NCBI GenBank assembly: GCA_041749335.1
Contig: JBGTBM010000010.1
Span: 142,039-206,038 of the forward strand
DNA from: Patescibacteria group bacterium
Lineage (GTDB): Bacteria; Patescibacteriota; JABMPQ01
Reading direction: 5' to 3'
Length of the DNA: 64,000 nt
The notes under the pieces were generated by a model, which was not told the origin of the DNA, did not search any database, and saw only the letters and a list, made by a program, of their open reading frames with translations. Position 1 is the stretch's first letter; each line of letters begins with the position of its first letter. The position numbers and the translations under genes were made by a program. This document shows, in pieces, positions 2 through 56,403 of this stretch.

Positions 2-1510
2 GATTGGGTCGATAAGTTAAAAAATTGCAAGAAAATTTATATCTGTTTTGATAATGATGAAGCTGGTCATAAAGGAGCTATGCGAGTAGCAGATATGATA
101 TATGAAAATACTGATTGTGAAACATTTAAAATTGATTTACCGGAAGAAGTCGGAGATGGAGGGGATATTACTGATTATTTAACAAAACTTAATGGCAATA
201 TTGAAGACTTATTTAGTAAATATTCAAGGCCTTATCCCGAAAGAATTGATACATCACAATTTAAACCTATTGTATTAAGCGATATTGTTAAGACGCTAGG
301 ATTAACGATTAAAAAAGATGAAACAAATAAAATCATAACTTTCCTATGCGAATTATCTGCATATACTGAAAGTTCCCAGTTTAATATTAGTTTTAACGCC
401 CCCTCCTCTACCGGCAAGTCTTATATACCTACAGAAATTGCACGCTTGTTCCCGGAAAAAGATATTGTCGAAATCGGATATTGTTCTCCTACAGCTTTTT
501 TCCATGATGTTGGAGAATATGATGAGGAAAGAAAAGGATATATTGTTGACCTGTCTAGAAAAATCCTTATCTTCTTAGACCAACCACACACCCAACTTCT
601 GGAAAGGCTAAGGCCTCTTTTATCGCATGATAAGAAAGAAATAAATATTAAAATAACCGATAAGAGCCAGAAATTTGGACTAAAGACAAAAAACGTTCTA
701 CTGAGAGGCTACCCTTCTGTTATTTTTTGTACAGCTGGACTAAGGATAGATGAACAAGAAGCAACACGATTTCTACTTTTAAGCCCCGAAACAAAACAGG
801 AAAAACTTAGAGAAGCAATACAAGAGAAAATTAAGAAAGAATCCGATTCCGCTGCATACAAGGAAGCCCTAAATAACAATCCTGAACGCAAATTATTACG
901 GAACAGAATAATGGCAATAAAGCAGGCAAAGATTAAGGAAATCAAAATCGCCTCCCCCGATATAATCGAGAAAAAAGTCTTAGATAATAAAATGTTGAAA
1001 CCTAGACACGCAAGAGATGTTGGTCGTCTCATATCGCTAATAAAAGCAAATGCTTTATTGAATTTATGGTTTAGGAAAAAGGAAGGATCAACAATTACTG
1101 CCAGTGATGATGATATTGAAAAAGCTTTCAAAATATGGGATTCAATATCAGAAAGTCAAGAATTGAATTTACCGCCATATATTTATAACCTTTACCACGA
1201 AGTTATTATGCCGGCCTGGAAAGAAAAAAACGAAGGACGATCGGAGGGATTTGAAGAAATTACAGGTGAGTTGGGATTATCACGACAAGATATTGTTCAA
1301 ATGCATTACAAAATTCACGGCAGATTTATAGCAGACTGGCAACTTAGACAGCATATAATCCCAATGCTAGAAACAGCGGGATTAATAATGCAAGAGCGAG
1401 ACCCAAGTGATAAACGTAAAATATTAATATATCCTACTCCCCTGTTAAACTCTGCAAATAAGAAAAACAATAGTGAGTCGAGTAGTGGGGTAAATAATTT
1501 AAAAATATGA
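2..1510 (+). CDS. Phage/plasmid-type DNA primase-helicase, 5'-partial (TOPRIM domain plus P-loop NTPase).
   Basis: The ORF is open from base 2 (DWVDKLKNCKKIYICFDNDEAGHKGAMRVADMI is a TOPRIM DxD/E-type motif). Walker A-like NAPSSTGKSY and Walker B-like ILIFLDQ follow. The ORF track starts at the first Met (80), but the frame is open to the window edge. Confidence 0.6.
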   Translation, partial: DWVDKLKNCKKIYICFDNDEAGHKGAMRVADMIYENTDCETFKIDLPEEVGDGGDITDYLTKLNGNIEDLFSKYSRPYPERIDTSQFKPIVLSDIVKTLGLTIKKDETNKIITFLCELSAYTESSQFNISFNAPSSTGKSYIPTEIARLFPEKDIVEIGYCSPTAFFHDVGEYDEERKGYIVDLSRKILIFLDQPHTQLLERLRPLLSHDKKEINIKITDKSQKFGLKTKNVLLRGYPSVIFCTAGLRIDEQEATRFLLLSPETKQEKLREAIQEKIKKESDSAAYKEALNNNPERKLLRNRIMAIKQAKIKEIKIASPDIIEKKVLDNKMLKPRHARDVGRLISLIKANALLNLWFRKKEGSTITASDDDIEKAFKIWDSISESQELNLPPYIYNLYHEVIMPAWKEKNEGRSEGFEEITGELGLSRQDIVQMHYKIHGRFIADWQLRQHIIPMLETAGLIMQERDPSDKRKILIYPTPLLNSANKKNNSESSSGVNNLKI

Positions 1511-2367: not shown

Positions 2368-3978
2368 ATGAATGAAGACAAACCTAAAATTAAATACTTT
2401 CTTTATACTCGCAAATCCTCAGAGGCTGAAGATAAACAAGTGGCTTCAATTGATTCTCAAATATCAGAATTAAGAAAAAAAGCTAAGCAAGTAAATATTA
2501 AGATCGTAAAGATATTTAAAGAATCTATGTCAGCTAAAGCTCCTGGTCGCCCCGTTTTTAACGAAATGTTAAGCAAAATTCAAAATGGCGAAGCTGACGG
2601 AATTTTGTGCTGGAAACTTGATAGGCTTGCCAGAAACTCAGTAGATGGAGGTCAAATTATATATTTACTGCAAAGTAATATTATTAAAAATATACAAGCA
2701 TATAGTCATAGCTATTATCCTAATGATAATGTTGTCATGATGTATGTTGAGTTCGGTGTAGCAAATCAATTTGTTAAAGATTTAAGCCAAAATGTAAAAA
2801 GAGGCTTTAATTCAAAAGCTCAAAGAGGATGGTTTCCTAACCGATTAACCCTGGGATATATGCACAATCCTAAAGGCTATGAAGATGGTAAGGAAATAAT
2901 CATTGATCCGGATAGCTTTAATGGTTTAAGAGAAGTATTTGATTTAGTTCTCACAGGTAATTATACGGTACCAGAAATATACAAAATTGCTATTAACGAG
3001 CTTTGTCTTAGAAATAAGAAGGGCAAGAAATTTTCACTAAGCACCTTATATAGAATATTAACTGATACATTTTATTATGGAGAATTTGAATATCCAAAGG
3101 GTAGTAGTGATTGGTTTACGGGTAAACACCATCAAATGATAACAGAAGAAGAATATGACAAGATTCAAATCATTTTAGGTAGAAAGGGCAAACCTCGCCC
3201 CAAGACTCATAAATTCGCCTATACAGGCCTTATACGCTGTGGTGAGTGCGGATGCAGTATAACCGCAGAAGATAAAATTAAAAAACAAATAAATGGTAAT
3301 ATACATAGATACACATACTATCACTGCACAAAACGTAAAAAAATACCCTGCTCCCAAAAAAATATAAGAGTTGAAAATTTAGAGAAGCAAATTAAAAATG
3401 TATTAGAAAAAATTGAAATTCCTAACAAGTTTTATCAGTGGGCATTAGATGAATTGCGGGAACGAAATAAAAAAGAATCCATAAATAGAGAAGAATTATT
3501 GTCTACGCAACAAAGACAATACAACAATTGTATCCAGAAAGTAGATAGATTGATTGATATGAGAACTAATGGAGAGCTTACAGAAGAAGAGTTTAAAAAT
3601 AAAAAGAGGGAATTAATAAAAGAAAAGGATAATTTCCAGAAACTTCTCAAAGACACAGACAACCGAGTAGACGACTGGTTAGACAAAGCAGAAGAAATGT
3701 TTAAATTTGCAGAAACTGCTAAATACAGATTTGAAAATGGCACCCTTGAAGATAGAAAGAATGTGCTTTCTATACTAGGTTCGAACCTCTTCCTAAAAAA
3801 CAATATTTTAAGTATACAAGTACAAAAACCCCTATTACTCATTCAAAAAGCCTCTTCTGAGATAAAAGCTTTTTCCAGAATGTTAGAACCTCAAACAATT
3901 GGCTTAAACAAAAGAAAAAAGAGAGCTTCTCGCTCTCAATTTCCTACACTATGGGACGTACAAGAATCGAACTTGTGA
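2368..3978 (+). CDS. Large serine recombinase/integrase (resolvase catalytic domain + recombinase domain + Zn ribbon + coiled coil).
   Basis: N-terminal YTRKSS..SIDSQ..DRLARN resolvase motifs. Zn ribbon CGECGCS..YYHCTKRK. Length 536 aa. Last 27 nt overlap tRNA-Lys. Confidence 0.85.
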   Translation: MNEDKPKIKYFLYTRKSSEAEDKQVASIDSQISELRKKAKQVNIKIVKIFKESMSAKAPGRPVFNEMLSKIQNGEADGILCWKLDRLARNSVDGGQIIYLLQSNIIKNIQAYSHSYYPNDNVVMMYVEFGVANQFVKDLSQNVKRGFNSKAQRGWFPNRLTLGYMHNPKGYEDGKEIIIDPDSFNGLREVFDLVLTGNYTVPEIYKIAINELCLRNKKGKKFSLSTLYRILTDTFYYGEFEYPKGSSDWFTGKHHQMITEEEYDKIQIILGRKGKPRPKTHKFAYTGLIRCGECGCSITAEDKIKKQINGNIHRYTYYHCTKRKKIPCSQKNIRVENLEKQIKNVLEKIEIPNKFYQWALDELRERNKKESINREELLSTQQRQYNNCIQKVDRLIDMRTNGELTEEEFKNKKRELIKEKDNFQKLLKDTDNRVDDWLDKAEEMFKFAETAKYRFENGTLEDRKNVLSILGSNLFLKNNILSIQVQKPLLLIQKASSEIKAFSRMLEPQTIGLNKRKKRASRSQFPTLWDVQESNL

Positions 3979-4024
3979 CCTTCTGCTTAAAAGGCAGCTG
4001 CTCTACCTGCTGAGCTAACGTCCC
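3952..4024 (-). tRNA. tRNA-Lys (anticodon UUU).
   Basis: Cloverleaf folded manually: GGGACGT/ACGTCCC acceptor, anticodon loop CUUUUAA, T-loop TTCGATT. 73 nt, no encoded CCA. Confidence 0.85.
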
Positions 4025-4048
4025 ATATAAATTAAATTATTAATGATT

Positions 4049-8689: not shown

Positions 8690-9172
8690 TTATTTAGCCA
8701 CTTTGACCCGAGCGGGCCTAATGACTTTATTTTTAAATTTATAACCAGTTTGAATTTCCTCAATAATCTTTCCGCTTTCGGCTTTGCTTTTTACCGATTC
8801 AATCGCTTCATGCATTTCCAGGTCAAAATCTTCCCCCAGGCTTTTTATCGATTCCACCTCATTATCCAGTAAATATTTATCGAATTGATCCTTAATAAAA
8901 CCTATTCCCCGCACCCAATTATTATCTTGAATTTCTGCTGGAATATTTTTATAAGCATTGGCAAAATTATCCACCACGGGTAATAAGTTTAAAATCATTT
9001 CCGCATTAACATATTCCATCAACTTTTTTTTCTCTTCAGCCGTACGTTTTTTTAAATTTTCGTAATCAGCTTTCGCCCTTTTCCATCCGGCTAAATTTTC
9101 TTCAACCTGCTTTTTTAAAATTTCTATTTCGCCTTTTTCTTCTTTTTTATTAAAAATATTTTTTTTATTCAT
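8690..9172 (-). CDS. grpE: Nucleotide exchange factor GrpE.
   Basis: Coiled-coil N-terminus (WKRAKADYENLKKR). GrpE C-terminal region. Operon context. Confidence 0.85.
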   Translation of the reverse strand: MNKKNIFNKKEEKGEIEILKKQVEENLAGWKRAKADYENLKKRTAEEKKKLMEYVNAEMILNLLPVVDNFANAYKNIPAEIQDNNWVRGIGFIKDQFDKYLLDNEVESIKSLGEDFDLEMHEAIESVKSKAESGKIIEEIQTGYKFKNKVIRPARVKVAK

Positions 9173-9173
9173 T

Positions 9174-9917
9174 TTAAATAATTATTATTGCAAAAACTAC
9201 CACTAGACCTGAACCTAATAACTTTTTTACATATTTAACCAACGAAATATTTTTTGAATATTGCATTCTTTTGGGACCCACCACTGCGATTATTCCCCTT
9301 TCGCCCGAAGGAAATTCTATCCCGGATAATATCATGCTGCAGCTTTCAACTTTGGCTAAAGGATTCTCGCTACCGATAAATATCTCAATATTTTTTTTCT
9401 GTGTTTGCTGCGCCAATTGATCAATGTTTTCATCGATATATTCCAATAGTTCAGCCACCTGGCAAACCTTGTCTGATTCCTTAAATTCCGGATTTTTAAG
9501 AAGTTCCGACATGCCGAAATCCCACACCGAATCTGAATCCACTAGGCCCGATAATGCCAGATTGCTAGACATCAGTGACAGCATTTTAGCCATGCTTTTT
9601 GCCATCCGATTATGCTGGGCGCGCAGTTTTAATAATTCAGTTTGTAACGCTCTCTGTTCATTATGATTTAATTTCTTTTCCCTCATTAAAGTATCGACAA
9701 AATACCGATAACCCTTGTCGGTTGGCACTCTGCCGGCAGATGTGTAGGGTTGAAAAATATATCCCTCTTCTTCCAACTCCTGCATTTCATTTCTGATAGT
9801 GGCAGTAGAAACCTTAACTTTAAAATTTTCCGCAATTTCAGAAGAACTGACCGGCTTAGCGCTGTCTATATATTTTTTTATAAGAGATCCTAAAATTAAT
9901 TCTTTTCTTATTTCCAT
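9174..9917 (-). CDS. hrcA: Heat-inducible transcription repressor HrcA (short form).
   Basis: N-terminal wHTH with SSEIAE..TIRNEM..LEEEGY..PYTSAGRVPTDKGYRYFVD. CIRCE lies immediately upstream. Confidence 0.85.
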   Translation of the reverse strand: MEIRKELILGSLIKKYIDSAKPVSSSEIAENFKVKVSTATIRNEMQELEEEGYIFQPYTSAGRVPTDKGYRYFVDTLMREKKLNHNEQRALQTELLKLRAQHNRMAKSMAKMLSLMSSNLALSGLVDSDSVWDFGMSELLKNPEFKESDKVCQVAELLEYIDENIDQLAQQTQKKNIEIFIGSENPLAKVESCSMILSGIEFPSGERGIIAVVGPKRMQYSKNISLVKYVKKLLGSGLVVVFAIIII

Positions 9918-23201: not shown

Positions 23202-23273
23202 AATGATTAGATAATCACGAAGCTAAAACTAATTTCATACAAATTGTACTTATTAGTATTAATCTCGTTTATT

Positions 23274-23311
23274 AATAAAAAAATCGCTCATTACCATAGA
23301 ATTGAGCGAAA
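23274..23311 (-). terminator. Hairpin CGCTCA-N12-TGAGCG plus T-run between surface-protein paralog 1 and rplJ. Terminator or rplJ leader structure.
   Basis: Read directly from the sequence. Confidence 0.4.
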
Positions 23312-23452
23312 TTACAACCATTACTAATCACTATTTTCTAATGACTAATAACCAGTTAAAACTCCCTCGGTAAGTTTTACGCATAAAATGCTACTTACGG
23401 TCTATGGTAAGTTAAAATAATGTTAATCTAATTACGATTAACTGTCAAGTGT

Positions 23453-48569: not shown

Positions 48570-50792
48570 ATGAAAACATTAGTTATCGTCGAATCTCCCA
48601 CCAAAGCCAAAACCATTTCCCGATATTTAGGCAAAGATTTTATTGTTGAATCTTCATTCGGCCACATTAGAGATCTTCCCAAAAAAGAAATTGGCGTTGA
48701 TGTGGAAAAAAACTTTACTCCGATTTATGAAATACCGGATAAAGCCAAAAAGGTCGTCTCCAGACTCAAAGCTAAATTAAAAAATGCCGACGAAGTGATA
48801 CTGGCGACTGACGAAGACCGGGAAGGAGAAGCCATCGCCTGGCATTTGGCGCACGCTTTAAATATTGACCCCAAAAATACCAAAAGAATTGTTTTTCACG
48901 AAATTACTAAAAAAGCGATTACTCAAGCGCTAAAAAATCCGCGCAAGATTGATGACAATTTGGTAGATGCCCAGCAGGCGCGCCGAATTCTTGATCGCTT
49001 AGTGGGATATAAATTAAGCCCGCTTTTATGGAATAAAGTTCGCCGAGGACTTTCCGCCGGCCGGGTCCAATCCGTCGCGGTACGCTTGATCGTAGATCGC
49101 GAAAGAGAAATTGAAAAATTTAAGGTTCAAGAATATTGGAGCATTGAAGCGGAATTATCTCAGCAAAATAAAGAAGATAATTTTATTGCCAAATTGGTTA
49201 AAAAAGATGATAAAACTTTTAAAAAGCTGGCGATCGATAGCGTGCAAGCAAAAAATATTATTCAAGATTTGGACCGGGCTCAATATAAAGTAATTGATAT
49301 TAGGCAAAAAGAAATTAAAAGAAGCCCTGCCCCGCCTTTTATTACCAGCACCTTGCAGCAGGAAGCATCGCGCAAATTCGGCTTTTCCGCCAAGCAAACC
49401 ATGATGATCGCCCAACAGCTTTATGAAGGAATAAACCTCGCAGGAAAATCAACTGGACTAATCAGCTATATGCGAACTGATTCTTATAATTTATCCCAAG
49501 ACGCTCTCGCGGAAGCTCAAACCGTCATTCAAAATTTGTACGGCAAGAATTACGCGCTCTCCACGCCGAGATTTTATAAAAAGAAAAGCAAAGGCGCGCA
49601 AGAAGCACATGAAGCCATCCGGCCTACCTCGCTTTCTAGATACCCCGAGGATTTAAAAAATGATTTAGACCCCAGGCAATATAAACTATACAGCCTGATT
49701 TGGAAAAGAACTATCGCCTGCCAGATGCAAGAAGCCATCATGGATTCAACCGCAGTGGATATTCAGGCCAAAAATTATTTATTCAGGGCAACCGGAGCGG
49801 TTATTAAATTTGCCGGTTTTATTAAAGTGTATACCGAAGGCACCGACGACGGTAAAAATATTTTTAAGGAAAACATCTTGCCTGGACTAAAAATTAATGA
49901 AGATCTTAAACTAATTGACTTAAAATCCATCCAGCATCACACCGAACCGCCGGCCCGCTATACCGACGCCACTTTGGTTAAAGCGCTGGAAGAGCATGGC
50001 ATCGGCCGGCCGTCCACCTATGCCCCCACCATCAGCACCATCCAGGATCGCGGTTATGTGGAAAAGATAGAAAAAAAATTCCATCCCTTGGATATCGGCA
50101 AACTGGTAAATGACATTTTGGTAGAACATTTTCCTGCGATTGTTGACTTTGAATTTACCGCCAAACTTGAAGAAGACCTGGATAAAATTGCGCTTAATGA
50201 AACCGAGTGGGTGCCGGTCATTGCTGATTTCTACGCGCCTTTTATTAAAAACATTGAAAAGAAAGATAAAGAATTGGACAAGAAAAAATTAACGGAGGAA
50301 AAAACGGATAAAAAATGTCCGCAGTGCCAAAGCGATATGGTAATTAAAATGGGACGCTTTGGAAAATTTTATGCCTGTTCAAAATATCCGGAATGTAAAT
50401 ATACCGAACCGCTGGAGGCAGAGAAAAAAGAATTGGCTAAGCTGGAAACCCAATCCAACGAAAAATGTGAAAAATGCGGTTCTGCCATGGAAGTAAAAAG
50501 AGGAAGATTCGGTCCATTTCTCGCCTGTTCTAAATATCCCGAATGTAAAAATACCAAGGCAATTGAAATATCTACCGGCGCCAAATGTCCGCAGTGCGGT
50601 AAGGGAGAAATCATTGAAAAAAAATCTAAAAAGGGTAGAACCTTTTACGCCTGCAACCAATATCCCAAATGCAAATATGCGATGTGGAATAAACCCACCG
50701 GCGAAAATTGCCCGCAGTGCCAAAGCCTTCTGGTCTATGCCGGCAAAGATAAAATTAAATGCAGCAACAAGGAATGTAAATTTGAAAAATAA
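48570..50792 (+). CDS. topA: DNA topoisomerase I with four C-terminal C4 zinc ribbons.
   Basis: TOPRIM (LVIVESPTKAKTI..), catalytic region, then 4x C-x2-C..C-x(4-5)-C ribbons. Confidence 0.95.
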   Translation: MKTLVIVESPTKAKTISRYLGKDFIVESSFGHIRDLPKKEIGVDVEKNFTPIYEIPDKAKKVVSRLKAKLKNADEVILATDEDREGEAIAWHLAHALNIDPKNTKRIVFHEITKKAITQALKNPRKIDDNLVDAQQARRILDRLVGYKLSPLLWNKVRRGLSAGRVQSVAVRLIVDREREIEKFKVQEYWSIEAELSQQNKEDNFIAKLVKKDDKTFKKLAIDSVQAKNIIQDLDRAQYKVIDIRQKEIKRSPAPPFITSTLQQEASRKFGFSAKQTMMIAQQLYEGINLAGKSTGLISYMRTDSYNLSQDALAEAQTVIQNLYGKNYALSTPRFYKKKSKGAQEAHEAIRPTSLSRYPEDLKNDLDPRQYKLYSLIWKRTIACQMQEAIMDSTAVDIQAKNYLFRATGAVIKFAGFIKVYTEGTDDGKNIFKENILPGLKINEDLKLIDLKSIQHHTEPPARYTDATLVKALEEHGIGRPSTYAPTISTIQDRGYVEKIEKKFHPLDIGKLVNDILVEHFPAIVDFEFTAKLEEDLDKIALNETEWVPVIADFYAPFIKNIEKKDKELDKKKLTEEKTDKKCPQCQSDMVIKMGRFGKFYACSKYPECKYTEPLEAEKKELAKLETQSNEKCEKCGSAMEVKRGRFGPFLACSKYPECKNTKAIEISTGAKCPQCGKGEIIEKKSKKGRTFYACNQYPKCKYAMWNKPTGENCPQCQSLLVYAGKDKIKCSNKECKFEK

Positions 50793-50917
50793 GCCCTAAT
50801 CAAAAAAACAGCTAACTATTAGCTGTTTTGTTATTAACATATTAAACAATCACACATAGGTGGTAGGAATCCTGCCTGTGATAGGCCGATAAACCCAATA
50901 TGTATATAATAAAACCA

Positions 50918-50988
50918 CAGGGGTGGTAGGAATTGAACCCACGTTACCGGTTTTGGAGACCGGAGTTCTACCACTGAACTACACCCCC
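50918..50988 (-). tRNA. tRNA-Trp (anticodon CCA).
   Basis: Manual fold: acceptor GGGGGTG/CACCCCT, anticodon loop CTCCAAA, T-loop GGTTCAATTCC. Confidence 0.8.
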
Positions 50989-51215
50989 AAAATTAAGCAG
51001 AAGAGCAAGCCTTCAGTCCATGAATTTTTTAAAAATAAGTTTATTTGGTTTCTTTGTGGGCTGTGTGCTTGCGGCACTCCTTGCAATATTTTTTTAATTC
51101 CAATCTTTCTTTAATTAGTTTTTTATTTTTTCGTGAAAAATAATTAACATTATGGCATTCCGTGCATTCAAATTTTATCATATTGTCTTGAGACATATAT
51201 TTTTTAATTAAATTT

Positions 51216-53120
51216 TTAAATATTTTTTATTCTGACCAAGGTCCATGCTCCGCCCTCGCCTTCTTTAACCAATTGAAGTAATTTTACTTCATATTCCTGG
51301 CCGTTATGCTCCACTCTTACTCGCGCCTCTCCGTCCTCGGATAAAAATAGATCAAATACATCAGTTTCGTTATCCAGGCCAAATTTTTCCGGAAGTTCTT
51401 CTTGCACTACCTTGACCGGATCTAATCTCCATTGCTCCTCGCCATCTTCAACCGCTTTTTGTTGTTGCTTGATATCAATAATGTTGTAGGGAAAAACTTC
51501 TTTACTCGCGGATGAATAGCTTTCCTCCCAAACTCCTTCTCGATATTCATAATAGATTACATCTTTGTCGGCAAAATAATCATTGCCGTCCGCCAGCTTC
51601 CATTGATAGCCCTCCGGTTGAAATGATGCGGTTACGTCGCATTTTATCTTACTTTTTTCATTTATGCAATGCAATAACAATCTGCGCGCATTAGCATTGT
51701 CCCCGTATTCAACATAATAGTCCGAATCGGTAACATAACCGATTTTAGCCGCTCGCCAAAATTCATTTTCCTGCGGCTCCTCAACCGCTAGAATATTAAT
51801 GTTTTTTTCAATATATTTAAATACTTCCGTTAAATTTATTTTAGGCGCTGATGATTCTGCTTCCGCTGCGGCCAGGGACTGCCAGTTCAAATCCTTCGGA
51901 ATTTCTATCGTTTGTAATATTTTAATATAATCATTCTTATCTCCGGCTTCTCGACGATATATAACCTCTGACTGTTTGGCTTCAATATCGGCCTTGATTA
52001 TTTCAGAATACACACCCCTTTGGCTATCAACGAAATAAATATATTTATTGGTTTTATCCCAAAATAGGTCAAAAATTTGGTTGCTGCTATCACTGGTTTC
52101 ATAGATCACTTCCGGCTTGGAGCCATTGCTTTCAATTATTTCCACCGTAATTTTTTTTATTTTATCATCATCGGAATAAATAATATGATTATAGGCGATA
52201 AATTTTCCATCGGGCGACCAGCGAAGTTCATAAATATTGCCCGTCAAGCTCGCTAAGTCGGTAAATTCCCCCACTTCGCTAATTTTTTTGATTTCGGTTT
52301 TTTTAATGATATCCCCGGACATCACTTTATCCAAATAGACCATAGCATCATCACCGGGAGAGATTGCGATAGGCTTTACTTCCCATAAATAATCCCAAGA
52401 AACATTTCTCCATTCTACTCCGCGGAAGGCGGGAGAAATTATTGATCCTTGAATTTTCGCTTGATTGAGCCGATACTCGGAATTGTCATATTTTTCTAAA
52501 TAATGAAACTTGTCGCCCGCGGCGTTAAAACCTTGATAATGCACCGGGTGCAGATTGGCGGCCGGAGCTACTAATTCGCTGGCTACTCCATTTTCGTTAT
52601 GAAAAACCCAATAAGAATATTCTTCATTATTATAAGAACGCAAATAAGCCACCGTGCTATAATCCGGAGACATCCAAATTCCCATAGGGTAATAATCTTT
52701 TGAAAAGGAAGCAATTTTATTTTCCGAAGCCCCCTTAAAGTCTGCCGCCCACAAAATCATATGATTTAAATCATCCTGTTTTTCTCCCGGTTCGTAATAA
52801 AACAGATTTGTTTTGGTGGCTTGAGGATTGGCCATAATAGAAACGTCGTGCGCGATATCAATGGTAAATTTTTGCTCCCCGATTGAATCGATAAAATAAA
52901 TATCGCCCCACTTGGTTTTATCTTTATCAATATACTTCTCGCCGATCAACAAGGCGGATTTATCCAAAGAATTGTCTTGCGTTATCTTTTCATTATAATC
53001 ATCCTTTTCTTGATCATATTTTTCTTTGTAGTATTTCCAGCCATAAAAAAATCCCACCGACATTCCTCCCAATACCAATATTAATATAAAATTGATTATT
53101 ACCGCTTTAAATATTTTCAT
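51216..53120 (-). CDS. Membrane-anchored hypothetical protein with TolB/PD40-like beta-propeller repeats.
   Basis: N-terminal [12 protein letters not shown]-type PD40 motif. Confidence 0.5.
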
Positions 53121-53192
53121 ATTGATTACTTTTTTTTATTTTACCAAATACATTGATTGCTCGCTAGTTGCTTTTATTAACAAATAGATAAG

Positions 53193-53223
53193 AAAAAGGG
53201 GGCAGTAGTTAAATACTGTCCCC
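53193..53223 (-). terminator. Intrinsic terminator (GGGGGCAGTA-gttaaa-TACTGTCCCC plus T5) directly downstream of the GC-rich gene.
   Basis: Perfect 10-bp stem plus T-tract on the - strand. Confidence 0.7.
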
Positions 53224-53303
53224 TGGAAGGTGCTAGGCGAGATATTCGGATGAATAGTTGACTTCCTCAGAATGAGTTGGTCGGAAAGATCAAATCTAGT
53301 GCG

Positions 53304-54743
53304 CTAGCAGTTGTAGCGCCGCTTGCTGTCGGCGACCTCGCCGAAGGTAGCGATGGCTGCCTTGCGACCATTGCCATCGGCGTAGACCTGGACGTCCTTC
53401 GAGTCGGCATGTCCGAAGCTGAAGCTGTTGCGGGCCTTGAAACCGCGGCCCCGCTGGTTCTGGCTTTTCTTCCCGCCGTTGGTGTTTCCGGACTCGTAGC
53501 GCTCGGCATCCCGCTCGTACTTCTTGGCCACTGCCTTCTCGACAGCGACCGAGAGCGGAGTCGTCCAGGCGTCTCGCTCGTCCTTGCGCGGGACTCCCCG
53601 AAGGATGTTCCCGCAGCGGCTGCAGAGAACCACCGGCTTGTTCTTCACCACCGGCTTCCCCTTGTCGTCGAGAACGACCTGCCCCTTGAGGTTGCCCTGC
53701 TTGTGCACGATCCGCATGGGCTGCCAGGAGATCCACATCTTGGGAAGTGGAATGTCCTCGCCGGCGCGGTTGATGAGAATGACCTTGTCATCCTCGTCTC
53801 GAGCCACGTCAGCCATCGTCCCCCGCTCGGAACAGTGGGGATTGGAGCAGACGTGGACATCCTTGGCATCGACCTTTGGCAGGAAGACGGGCGGACAGTT
53901 GTTCTCGTCCAGCAGGCCGTCGAACAGGTCGCGGGCCCACTGGCGCGAGAGATCGTTCGCGCTCGGTGTTCTCTGATCTTCCTCCTTCTGGTCGCCGGAC
54001 TCCACGTCCATACCGACCATGAAGGCGTCGGCCTGAGACAGAAGCTTCTGCTCGCGCAGGTGCTCCTGCTCCTCACGCCGGAGCCTCTGCTCCTCGGCCT
54101 CCTGAGACATCTTCTGGATCTTCGCTTCCGCCTCCTGCTGCCTGTGCGCCTCTTCGTCCTTGCGCTGCTTGTACTTGCGCTGGGCGTAGGAGAAATCGAG
54201 GAAGATGTCGTCGCGGCCGAAGAATCGCATGAGCTGCGAACGACAGTCGGGGCAGACCGGGAACGGTCCACCGCCATCCTTGAGAGTCAGCAGGCGGGAC
54301 TGGAAGGCCTTCGCGAGAGCGAACTGCTTCTCCTCGAGAGGAGAGCGTTTTCCGCGCGTGATGCGAGTGACCTCCGCCATCTTGGACGGATTCACCGTCT
54401 TCACGCACTCCGGAGTTCCTTCGCTTCCCATCACCATCTCCTTCCCGCAGTCGGGACGAGCGGCGCAGATCACGGTCTTCTCGGGGTCGTAGTCGAGCTG
54501 GCGTTCGGCCGGCACGACCTCGGCCTTGGCTAGGCGCCTCTCTTCGTTTTTCTTGGCCTTGGCGGCGGCTTGAACGCGACGCCTGCAGTGGGAACAGAAG
54601 CCATCGGGATCGTTGTCGTTCCAGTAGTTCTTGCAGGGGTTGCCCCCTTTCGTCACTCCCGGACACATCTTGCCATCGGAACGCTTTGGTGACATCTCAC
54701 ACCTCTTTTTACTTCTTGGTGTTGTGGTTTTATGAACAGACAT
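53304..54743 (-). CDS. Compositionally foreign (~65% GC) gene encoding a Lys/Arg/Glu-rich multi-Zn-ribbon coiled-coil protein of unknown function. Likely start at Met17 (54695), which has the SD AAAGAGGTG.
   Basis: The GC jump is confined to 53230-54700. CxxC pairs (CSHC, CPDC, CSNPHC, CSRC). Long uninterrupted frame, with alternative-frame ORFs typical of high-GC coding DNA. Own terminator downstream. Confidence 0.6.
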   Translation of the reverse strand: MSVHKTTTPRSKKRCEMSPKRSDGKMCPGVTKGGNPCKNYWNDNDPDGFCSHCRRRVQAAAKAKKNEERRLAKAEVVPAERQLDYDPEKTVICAARPDCGKEMVMGSEGTPECVKTVNPSKMAEVTRITRGKRSPLEEKQFALAKAFQSRLLTLKDGGGPFPVCPDCRSQLMRFFGRDDIFLDFSYAQRKYKQRKDEEAHRQQEAEAKIQKMSQEAEEQRLRREEQEHLREQKLLSQADAFMVGMDVESGDQKEEDQRTPSANDLSRQWARDLFDGLLDENNCPPVFLPKVDAKDVHVCSNPHCSERGTMADVARDEDDKVILINRAGEDIPLPKMWISWQPMRIVHKQGNLKGQVVLDDKGKPVVKNKPVVLCSRCGNILRGVPRKDERDAWTTPLSVAVEKAVAKKYERDAERYESGNTNGGKKSQNQRGRGFKARNSFSFGHADSKDVQVYADGNGRKAAIATFGEVADSKRRYNC

Positions 54744-55296
54744 TTCTGTCTGCCCACATTGTCTTTTCCGAATACCTATTATTAATGTACTTTCCCCTTA
54801 TATGCAAACAAGAAGAACCTTTTTTGGGCACTAAGCCCTCACCTCCATAAGGAAGGTCTAAGTAAGGAGGTAACTTAGACAAGGTTCTTCATATCTGAAT
54901 ATAATTTCCAAGTTTTAACTTAAGATTTTGAGAAATTATATAATCATTATTGAAAAGGTTCGTTTTTAACGCCATCTCTTTTCAGGCATCAATATTTTTT
55001 ACTATCTCAATCTTTATTGCACAAGTTTAACATATTATAATATTTATGTCAAGGCCTTTTGACATCTTTTGTCATTTTATTATCTTTTGTTTCATCTATA
55101 TTGTATTATTTTTTATAAATTATGTTTTACAATACCAACATATATTTATTAATAATGTTTTAGGCGCAGACATTTGGCGAGTTAAGTAATAGTGTTTTAT
55201 TTCTGAGTTATTGGCAGGTTAAGAACCTGCCCTACTTAAATATCTTTAAATTACATAGTTAACTGGGACTTAGTATATATATTTATTCATAAAGCC

Positions 55297-55324
55297 TTGA
55301 CAAATTATTTATATAATTTATAAT
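55297..55324 (+). promoter_or_regulatory. Consensus sigma70-type promoter TTGACA-N16-TATAAT in the gene-free AT-rich stretch.
   Basis: Exact -35 and -10 hexamers with 16-nt spacer, read from the sequence. Confidence 0.5.
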
Positions 55325-55451
55325 AAAGCCAGAATCAATGTCGGTTCTTGAGGAGAAAATAGAGGTATTACCGACATCGTGTGAACCATGACAGTTCTTT
55401 ATAAAAATTCTCCTCAAAACAAAAATACCTCGTGAAGACAAGGAGGTAAAT

Positions 55452-55526
55452 ATGTATGTGACCAGTTGGGGAAATATGTGCCGGTTTATTGTCCCCCGCG
55501 TCGCCCATTGCAGTGATGGCGGGTGA
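55452..55526 (+). CDS. Candidate small ORF (24 codons, MYVTSWGNMCRFIVPRVAHCSDGG) with a strong SD (AAGGAGGT-N5-ATG), downstream of the promoter and a structured leader.
   Basis: Found only by manual reading. No homology can be asserted. Confidence 0.2.
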   Translation: MYVTSWGNMCRFIVPRVAHCSDGG

Positions 55527-55638
55527 ATGTGTATGATATAAACTTTCATTATTTTCTTGCAACAGGCAAAACAAAAACCTCCGCTTGGAGGTTGAAGATA
55601 TATGAAGACTCTTAGTTCGCTAGGGGTCTCTTTTTTTA

Positions 55639-56403
55639 TTATTTATTAAATTTTTCCGAACCATTCCATGACAGCTCAAAAATATATTTCATAGTGTTAG
55701 CAATTTCCTGGCTCTCAATAATAACGCCGATGATTTTACCTTTATAAGTAGCGATAGCTAATTTATTGCAATAAATATTAATTTCAGCCGAAAAAGGAAA
55801 TTTATTTATCGGCACATACCTGCGATCTTTAGTCCCCTCTTTTTTTGGCAAAAAATTTCCCTTTTTGCTGGTATAAATAATTCTTTCCGGAATATTCTTT
55901 AGTTTCCGCGCCATTTCCTTGCGATGATCGGTTGGGCTGGGAGGCAATACTCGATAAACTTCATCCAAAGGAACAATTTGGTCAAGCCTCTCTACTTTGG
56001 ATTTGATCATATCGTCGCGAATTGATCTTAAACCTTCTTTCCCTTCAAAAAATCTCACCTTGGGTTTCTCTCCGCCAAGATTATACATAATATTTAATTC
56101 CGGAATTACATTTTTTATTTCTTCTTCTTTTTGCTTCAATCTAATTTGTTCGTTTTGAAGCAAATCTTTAAATTTTTCCGGAGATTCTGCGGTAAAATAT
56201 CTTTTTTTTCCCTTTTCAAAAGTTGATATTAGGCCTTTTTTCATCAAAGATTCCAATACCACATACGCCGTAGGGCGATTAATTTCCGCCTTTTTGGCAA
56301 TTTCCAAAACGCTGGCATAACCTAATTCCAAAGCTGATAAGTATATTTTTGCTTCTTTTGATTTTAAGCCTAAATTGGTTAGATCTTTGGGCAATATTGA
56401 CAT
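55639..56403 (-). CDS. TrmB-family transcriptional regulator.
   Basis: N-terminal wHTH (LGLKSKEAKIYLSALELGYASVLEIAKKAEINRPTAYVVLESLMKKGL) plus C-terminal TrmB-like domain. Confidence 0.7.
   Translation of the reverse strand: MSILPKDLTNLGLKSKEAKIYLSALELGYASVLEIAKKAEINRPTAYVVLESLMKKGLISTFEKGKKRYFTAESPEKFKDLLQNEQIRLKQKEEEIKNVIPELNIMYNLGGEKPKVRFFEGKEGLRSIRDDMIKSKVERLDQIVPLDEVYRVLPPSPTDHRKEMARKLKNIPERIIYTSKKGNFLPKKEGTKDRRYVPINKFPFSAEINIYCNKLAIATYKGKIIGVIIESQEIANTMKYIFELSWNGSEKFNK

Follow-up and report, generated by a model that had tools for sequence, protein, structure and literature searches.

A zinc-ribbon gene that stays GC-rich within AT-rich genomes across diverged bacterial lineages

In the genome of a Patescibacteria group bacterium (NCBI GenBank assembly GCA_041749335.1, contig JBGTBM010000010.1), we analyzed a stretch of 64,000 nucleotides (nt; positions 142,039 to 206,038 of the forward strand), which we call the window and in whose coordinates positions are given unless another locus is named. 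A single gene on the minus strand, named X here (53304..54695), encodes a multi-zinc-ribbon coiled-coil protein and is far richer in G and C than the AT-rich DNA around it. An earlier description, made from the letters alone and referred to below as the sequence-only reading, had proposed that X was foreign: either a recent import by horizontal gene transfer (HGT) from a high-GC donor or an assembly chimera. The features of the locus are the following.

51216..53120, minus strand: downstream neighbour of X, a membrane-anchored beta-propeller-like protein of 634 amino acids (aa), 62–65% identical among lineages
53190..53223, minus strand: intrinsic terminator of X, GGGGACAGUA-loop-UACUGCCCCC, then UUUUUCUU; stem at 53198-53223
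53304..54695, minus strand: coding sequence (CDS) of X, 463 aa, stop codon TAG at 53306..53304
54700..54708, minus strand: Shine-Dalgarno (SD) sequence (A)AAGAGGTG, 5–6 nt before the ATG at 54695
54731..54758, minus strand: conserved leader hairpin with the core CAGACA-GAAA-TGTCTG, whose loop holds an unconserved upstream ATG (54743)
54798..54904, minus strand: structured 5′ leader RNA of about 107 nt (covariance-model match 54782-54910)
55024..55052, minus strand: candidate promoter of X from a consensus scan, TTGACA, 17 nt, TAAACT, with an extended −10 TG
55639..56403, minus strand: upstream neighbour of X, a TrmB-family helix-turn-helix regulator of 254 aa, 87–89% identical among lineages

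The sole long sense open reading frame (ORF) over the GC-rich segment (53304..54743, minus strand) comprises 479 aa, and the sequence-only reading had placed the product between 463 and 479 aa, with translation from Met17 (ATG 54695..54693). We adopted this start because the orthologs described below begin with MSPKR at this position, because the upstream ATG lies in the loop of the leader hairpin and the in-frame extension that it would add lacks conservation, and because the step in GC content begins at Met17. The 479-aa form annotated in the NCBI record (ATG 54741-54743) probably starts too far upstream, and the annotated start of one ortholog, P0003 (locus L004, 1633-1707), is likewise probably too early: the GC content at third codon positions (GC3) is only 0.30 over its first 25 residues, and conservation of the N-terminus sets in at M26. 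The SD sequence of X (AAGAGGTG, 54700-54707) has AAGGAG equivalents in L004 and in a second related locus, L001, and the terminator has a folding energy of −14.2 kcal/mol (z = −3.0). The description of X as a gene with a native SD sequence and a low-GC-style intrinsic terminator, embedded and expressible rather than part of an end-to-end chimera, was therefore upheld. The block containing the candidate promoter is conserved in L001; transcription from it (55052-55024, minus strand) would imply a leader of about 320 nt.

The CDS of X has a GC content of 0.622, with 0.63, 0.42 and 0.82 at the first, second and third codon positions, respectively (GC3 0.821); all three positions are shifted, not the third alone. 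The other 44 genes of the window have a mean GC of 0.376 ± 0.031 and a mean GC3 of 0.347 ± 0.054, from which X deviates by z = 7.8 and z = 8.7, respectively; the whole window has 37% GC and a GC3 of 0.35, and the genes adjoining X have GC3 values of 0.29–0.42. In 200-nt windows, GC rose from 0.27–0.35 to 0.60–0.65 within about 100 nt at both ends of X (~53250 and ~54700), and outside X every 1-kb bin of the 64 kb had a GC of at most 0.45. The GC profile and the z-scores thus bear out the reported jump at both ends of a single ORF, and the reported abundance of CpG corresponds to an observed/expected ratio of 1.08. The shift extends to the protein: R/(R+K) is 0.49 in X versus 0.31, and Ile accounts for 2.4% versus 9.1% of residues. 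A low-complexity region as the cause of the GC shift, which had been named as a possible refutation, was ruled out, because GC3 is high in all 30-codon bins and even along the gene.

A search of 5.8 billion protein clusters with X returned one ortholog, P0002 (52% identity), and P0003, P0004, P0005 and P0006 came from an exhaustive profile search of 1.84 billion representatives. The family thus has six known members, located in the window and at L001, L004, L007, L008 and L009; a profile search built from these six found no further member. No homolog of X was found in GTDB genomes, IMG/VR or JGI metagenomes (scanned with X, JGI by protein patterns), and a scan of GTDB genomes with the 634-aa neighbour as the query found nothing. 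P0002 lies on a 551-kb ENA contig (L001) in the order tRNAs, TrmB-like regulator, X, 634-aa protein, L33 and tRNA-Trp; in the window, too, the 634-aa gene is followed by L33 and tRNA-Trp. P0003 occupies the same slot as the window X on a 14-kb Logan contig (L004). The order TrmB-like gene, leader, X, 634-aa gene and L33 is common to the window, L001 and L004, so that the comparison with sister genomes called for by the sequence-only reading placed X in the same slot in both relatives. Among these three syntenic lineages X itself is 38–52% identical, and the distant homologs are 23–28% identical to the window protein. P0005 (L008), a very divergent homolog, is 563 aa long, and its C-terminal domain contains large insertions. 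Its contig comes from the same sample (SRR27456861) as L014, which carries an ortholog of the 634-aa protein, 66% identical to that of the window; the ends of the two contigs are similar without an exact overlap, and their adjacency is unproven. If they do adjoin, X in that lineage has a far higher rate of evolution than the gene next to it. At L009, P0006 lies behind a long AT-rich leader (1-652) with two TTGACA-type promoter-like sites, and the 3′ end of a tRNA is found at the start of the locus.

The conservation of this architecture bears directly on the idea of a chimera or contaminant insert, for which the composition jump itself, and nothing else, speaks. Contigs from two separate Logan runs, covering window positions 50001-55251 (L002) and 52783-54810 (L003), match the window at 100% identity, and each runs across both junctions. 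An NCBI contig of 300,524 bp encodes the same 479-aa product, and the same architecture is present on the 551-kb and 14-kb contigs of the other lineages. X is almost certainly not an assembly artefact.

The neighbouring genes provide a measure of how long X has been at this site. Nei-Gojobori estimates of synonymous divergence (dS) were 1.5–2.2 for X, 1.6–2.4 for the TrmB-like gene, and 2.2 or saturated for the 634-aa gene. At four-fold degenerate sites within identical residues, the third bases agreed in just 36–39% of cases for all three genes, and the pairwise identities of X and its neighbours were congruent across lineages. Since the dS of X is as saturated as that of its neighbours, X has co-diverged with its genome to near-saturation. 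X evolves faster at the protein level, with a nonsynonymous divergence (dN) of 0.41–0.65 versus 0.07–0.28 for the neighbours; its dN/dS of about 0.3 against the orthologs indicates a real protein under purifying selection. These data show vertical descent: X is a vertically inherited, lineage-restricted orphan gene. A recent, un-ameliorated import from a high-GC donor, as favored by the sequence-only reading, would explain why a sharp anomaly is confined to a single gene. However, X has syntenic orthologs in the same slot, which are equally high in GC3 although synonymous sites are saturated; their 48–62% protein divergence also excludes that the ortholog loci are mutual contaminants of one another. 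No donor-like homolog, and no homolog in a GC-rich context, was found. The proposal of a recently acquired foreign gene did not survive these comparisons, and we regard such an import as highly unlikely. Hallmarks of mobility (integrase or transposase ORFs, significant flanking repeats, tRNA insertion) were not found next to X; the tRNAs near it are those for Thr, Tyr and Trp, of which the nearest lies 2 kb away, past conserved genes.

The high GC content is shared by all six members of the family.

Window: gene GC 0.62, GC3 0.82
L001: gene GC 0.59, GC3 0.71
L004: gene GC 0.55, GC3 0.68
L007: gene GC 0.61, GC3 0.74
L008: gene GC 0.54, GC3 0.64
L009: gene GC 0.645, GC3 0.87

The flanks of all six members have a GC of 0.30–0.44, and the GC3 of the neighbouring genes in the three syntenic lineages is 0.24–0.42. 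No member was found in GC-rich DNA, either among the six or in the searched collections (1.84 billion representatives, GTDB, IMG/VR and JGI; 15 billion proteins). Codon usage of the six members is the mirror image of that of the host, as seen in the share of the following codons.

AAG: X members 0.65–0.93, host 0.20
GAG: X members 0.56–0.83, host 0.16
CAG: X members 0.68–0.96, host 0.28
TTC: X members 0.83–1.00, host 0.17
ATC: X members 0.71–1.00, host 0.21

The six members also favor TAC and CTC; TTA is absent from six of six, and ATA is near zero. These codons are not the host-optimal ones, since the host genes for ribosomal protein S2 and EF-Ts have a GC3 of 0.24–0.28. Runs of five or more A/T occur at 0.7–4.1 per kb in X versus 43 per kb in a host gene. 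The boundary of the composition is equally consistent: in every lineage the 40 nt before the ATG of X have a GC of 0.35–0.38, the first 40 nt of the CDS 0.50–0.55 and the later bins about 0.55–0.72, and GC drops in the ~80 nt past the stop codon, the terminator stem included. Under the AT-biased regime of the host, and at more than one substitution per site, neutral third positions should have covered most of the decay toward about 0.3, and they have not; a directional force therefore keeps the coding sequence of X GC-rich. Since GC changes at the start and stop codons, the force acts on the CDS only. The GC-richness of X is not the fading trace of a transfer.

As for the nature of this force, we considered an ancient acquisition from a high-GC source followed by residence in a recombination hotspot, where GC-biased gene conversion would keep GC high without any benefit to expression. 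Biased conversion is documented in bacteria, all codon positions of X are shifted, and its higher dN is as expected for a recombination-prone locus. Moreover, the high-GC signature of X, that is, its codons, its amino acids shifted in the GARP sense and its depletion of TpA, is indistinguishable from that of the genes of mycobacteriophage L5. However, the step lies within tens of nt of the start and stop codons in every lineage, whereas conversion tracts should ignore the limits of a CDS, and a gain of 45 points in GC3 goes far beyond the shifts of a few percent GC that a study of biased conversion in bacteria reportedly found. In the window, no further copy of X and no repeat was found with which conversion could take place, and no donor lineage was detectable. 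An ancient foreign origin fits the high-GC signature yet does not explain its persistence, and selection and GC-biased conversion therefore both remain live; we consider conversion the less convincing of these, and unlikely as the main cause.

A different source of persistence would be the repeated, independent replacement of X by a mobile GC-rich cassette from a high-GC reservoir yet to be sampled, for instance a partner organism, a plasmid or a virus. A gene "living" elsewhere is the simplest source of a lasting and complete high-GC signature, and the weak, non-significant similarity of the N-terminal finger to DUF5763 and zf-primase (E ~0.005–0.01) might, we presume, hint at an actinobacterial or phage-type finger. 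Nevertheless, six of six members are AT-flanked and none was found in GC-rich DNA among the 15 billion proteins, no integrase, flanking repeats or att-like sites lie by X, and the dS of X equals that of its neighbours. In addition, a conserved AT-rich leader abuts the start codon in three lineages. Serial replacement thus appears quite improbable.

The region upstream of X was also found to be conserved. About 900 nt between the TrmB-like gene and X contain no credible ORF, and blocks within this region are conserved far above the saturated background. The structured leader RNA consists of a P1 stem of about 22 bp that encloses three hairpins: P2, with 8 bp and a loop, UACCUCCUU, that has the sequence of the 16S 3′ anti-SD tail; P3, which holds GGAGGUGA; and P4 (GGGC/GCCC). 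RNAalifold analysis of the three lineages gave 39 pairs, of which none was broken, with three compensatory and six wobble-compatible changes, and the six wobble changes pair solely on the X-sense strand. The minimum free energy of the element is −46.2 kcal/mol (z = −5.2; opposite strand, z = −2.6), and the whole 338-nt leader also folds at z = −5.2. The covariance model scored 145–150 bits in the window, L001 and L004, with no other match. The element belongs to no Rfam family (chance-level matches only, 18 bits against a threshold of 118), and a probe of JGI metagenomes with the leader RNA found nothing. Since the leader is long, conserved and structured, and its P2 loop is complementary to the SD sequence of X, translation of X is plausibly regulated through it. 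The anti-SD-like loop may simply sequester the SD sequence of X itself.

We also considered whether the GC-rich segment is primarily an antisense gene or a structured RNA that demands GC. The window does carry a long antisense ORF (53277-54533, plus strand, 418 aa), and the X mRNAs fold better than their synonymous shuffles in six lineages (z −2.0 to −6.6), both of which would fit such a reading; however, it is the sense frame that shows protein-level conservation with synonymous turnover, and a primary role of this kind is very unlikely. The antisense gene was rejected, as an ORF of about this length is expected from the codon composition, and L001 and L008 both carry interruptions of the frame. 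As to folding, host genes gave z-scores of −1.2 to +1.05 against synonymous shuffles, and L5 genes gave +0.7 to −6.4 (median about −3.5). Because ordinary GC-rich L5 genes show an equal excess, the folding excess of X is generic, and special selection on mRNA structure was dropped as an explanation. TpA at codon junctions was 0.25–0.42 in X, 0.24–0.61 in L5 genes and 0.73–0.84 in host genes. A specific avoidance of TAA, TTA, ATA and TAT and of junction TpA was likewise rejected, because this depletion matches that of the L5 genes and is not specific to X.

The explanation that we favor, and to which we assign about half of our confidence, is that X is an orphan gene whose composition is held by natural selection on the composition of the translated mRNA. 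That the boundary is sharp and confined to the CDS, that the effect is so large and that no repeat partner was found leads us to infer selection rather than biased conversion, and with it a specific benefit of the composition. X would be written in a "dialect" other than that of the rest of the transcriptome, with G/C-ending codons throughout, no TTA, hardly any ATA or AAA, hardly any UA dinucleotides or A/U runs, and Arg replacing Lys. Such a dialect could uncouple the expression of X from whatever limits or destroys ordinary AU-rich messages. Candidate pressures would be endoribonucleases directed at AU or UA or acting in the A site on A-rich codons, depletion or cleavage of the U34 tRNAs needed by the remaining proteome, or a throttled translation rate alone; the advantage would arise under ribonuclease toxins or anticodon nucleases, during starvation or in dormancy. 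We tentatively suggest, as a possibility held with less than even confidence, that recoding of the whole CDS is here a regulatory principle, which would allow a message to be decoded, or to survive, under conditions in which AU-rich transcripts fail to. An extreme variant, in which the codons would stay adapted to a high-GC cytoplasm because the gene or its mRNA would be expressed, in a T-DNA-like manner, in a GC-rich partner cell of the presumably episymbiotic host, seems to us very doubtful. A gene for an Elp3-like radical-SAM/acetyltransferase, a putative tRNA U34-modification enzyme, was observed in L001 (1999-3714, minus strand) about 6 kb from X, and it could be relevant to the decoding of A- versus G-ending Lys, Glu and Gln codons.

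Several points weigh against explaining X by selection. The selective benefit of its composition is a conjecture. Selection is inseparable from GC-biased gene conversion in the present material, because the re-assembled alleles are all identical and offer no polymorphism spectrum. X bears the complete signature of a high-GC genome and matches the ordinary GC-rich genes of mycobacteriophage L5; as the folding excess and the TpA depletion are equal in L5, neither lends independent support to a special function of the mRNA, and both traits would also fit a foreign origin. Finally, the covariance model misses the leader upstream of the distant homolog P0006, and the leader was thus seen only in the syntenic clade.

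The protein encoded by X was examined with an AlphaFold2 (AF2) model built from six sequences, with a predicted local distance difference test (pLDDT) score of 74; an earlier model was unusable (pLDDT 45). The model and the ortholog alignment gave the following features (residue numbers of X).

Residues 9-37: N-terminal Cys4-type finger (C11, C21, C34, C37)
Residues 35-58: basic helix
Residues 74-159: ribbon-plus-helices module (C77/C83/C97 and C148/C151)
Residues 168-226: long helix, 59 residues in one helix (coiled-coil segment)
Between this helix and the beta-rich domain: acidic linker
Residues 283-378: beta-rich C-terminal domain, clamped by C283/C288 and C358/C361
Residues 381-401: C-terminal helix
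Tail: disordered, with a conserved RRGRG..GMKA motif (RGRG)

The cysteine pairs kept between orthologs are C11/C21/C34/C37, C77/C83/C97, C148/C151, C283/C288 and C358/C361, and these ligands are invariant in the comparison of orthologs; the RRGRG motif is present in four of the six family members. All CxxC pairs that had been read from the sequence are therefore present and conserved, the central coiled coil corresponds to the single helix 168-226, and the identity of X as a multi-zinc-ribbon coiled-coil protein is supported by both cysteine conservation and the model. The protein is basic and probably dimeric, and its zinc ribbons, basic charge and RG motif suggest that it binds nucleic acid. 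The proposed homology check, run as profile and PDB searches, gave nothing above threshold beyond the six-member family: X had no such match in Pfam, PHROGs, NCBIfam, PADLOC or PDB sequence profiles. The best subthreshold matches were to Zn_ribbon_12 (16 bits, cut-off 27) and zf-primase (17.2 bits, cut-off 28.8). For the MCM10/primase-type finger and DUF5763, weak subthreshold similarity was seen only in residues 6-38 of P0005 (E = 0.0045–0.0099), and the PDB profile match to the MCM10 finger had an E of ~0.5. The AF2 model, including its beta-rich C-terminal domain, had no significant structural neighbour in the PDB.

Divergent from X, the window contains a candidate new non-coding RNA (ncRNA) of about 250–300 nt (55297-55640, plus strand), which is also present in L001 (~9162-9478, minus strand) and L004 (~880-1192, minus strand). 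Three lineages retain its promoter, a perfect TTGACA-16-TATAAT at 55297-55324. Coding is excluded by 5-nt indels, and RNAalifold predicted 63 pairs, of which 12 show compensatory changes. Conservation includes the core hairpin AUUCCCCGCGUCGC...GGCGGGUGAAU, and the 3′ end carries two terminator hairpins. ORFs over the ncRNA (53 aa in L004; 68 and 88 aa in the window) are probably spurious. The candidate ncRNA has no match in Rfam. An L10 leader (RF00557) was detected in the window at 23269-23425 (minus strand, 59.5 bits), and since Rfam recognizes this leader here, the missing match for the two new RNAs is more meaningful. At the other side of the window, a large serine recombinase (2368-3978, plus strand; domains Resolvase, Recombinase and Zn_ribbon_recom) has its 3′ end inside or next to tRNA-Lys(UUU) (3951-4025, minus strand), and GC skew and gene orientation flip at about 4–5 kb; the region 2368-4025 is possibly the edge of an integrated element. 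The window further encodes DnaK, PBP2, RelA/SpoT, SHMT, ATP synthase alpha, DprA, topoisomerase I and many large proteins without a Pfam domain, and the 551-kb contig of the relative also encodes type IV pilus genes; no rRNA gene lies in the window. This gene content would fit a small genome of the Patescibacteria/CPR type.

Base composition is usually taken as a passive property that is set by genome-wide mutation bias, with outliers regarded as recent imports undergoing amelioration. The X family contradicts this passive view, because its members keep a GC3 of 0.64–0.87 inside genomes with a GC3 of about 0.25–0.35, and this composition has outlasted both the saturation of silent sites and the loss of most protein similarity. 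X therefore provides a handle on whether selection or biased conversion can hold composition against the mutational tide, and it raises the question of whether the composition of a whole gene can be used as a regulatory device. For the curation of metagenome-assembled genomes, it is a caution that a compositional outlier need not reflect HGT or contamination. The locus also offers new material from a poorly sampled small-genome lineage, namely an uncharacterized zinc-ribbon family and two uncharacterized structured RNAs. In a full-text literature search, no account of a GC-rich gene conserved within AT-rich genomes of bacteria came up, and we know of no described precedent for a gene kept GC-rich in such genomes over deep time.

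X can nonetheless be compared with several known systems. Like horizontally acquired genes and genomic islands, it shows a sharp discontinuity of GC and codon usage in a discrete segment and encodes a protein without relatives in the host. Unlike them, it occupies the same locus in diverged sisters with saturated sites and no amelioration, it is accompanied by no mobility gene, repeat or detectable donor, and its anomaly ends at the limits of the CDS. In high-GC Streptomyces, TTA/bldA regulation uses codons of opposite bias to tie translation to minor tRNAs, and X resembles bldA-type genes in being set apart by such codons. However, genes of the bldA system are normal apart from one or a few TTA codons, whereas in X the whole CDS (GC3 0.64–0.87), the amino acids and the dinucleotides are inverted, and the direction is reversed, X being GC-rich in an AT-rich genome; in the genome fragments covered, no dedicated tRNA was found. 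The P1/MgPa adhesin genes of Mycoplasma and the var genes of Plasmodium are GC-elevated, recombination-prone surface genes in AT-rich genomes; like X, they are far more GC-rich than their genome and stable over evolutionary time. These genes recombine with dispersed repeats, which makes biased conversion plausible, and encode variable surface antigens, whereas X is single-copy in the window, lacks repeats, encodes a seemingly cytoplasmic and basic protein, and shows a much larger shift.

The leader and the protein have their own parallels. As with autoregulatory ribosomal-protein leaders (e.g., the L10 leader RF00557), a structured leader precedes the gene for a basic, probably RNA-binding protein, and as in leaders that mimic rRNA, a loop copies 16S sequence (ACCUCCUUA); the X leader differs in having no match in Rfam, and binding of X to its own leader would be hypothetical. 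Xenogeneic silencers of the H-NS/Lsr2 type combine an oligomerization domain with an AT-hook-like Q/RGR motif that binds the minor groove of AT-rich DNA; X, with its coiled coil and RRGRG motif, presumably resembles them at the level of the motif only, with no match in sequence or fold. The N-terminal finger (C-x9-C-x12-C-x2-C) is weakly similar to those of zf-primase, MCM10 and DUF5763 (best E = 0.0045). Finally, X shares with DksA/TraR a Cys4 zinc finger combined with a long coiled coil, a DksA-like layout, but it is three times longer than DksA, carries three or four ribbons and has a distinct beta-rich C-terminal domain.

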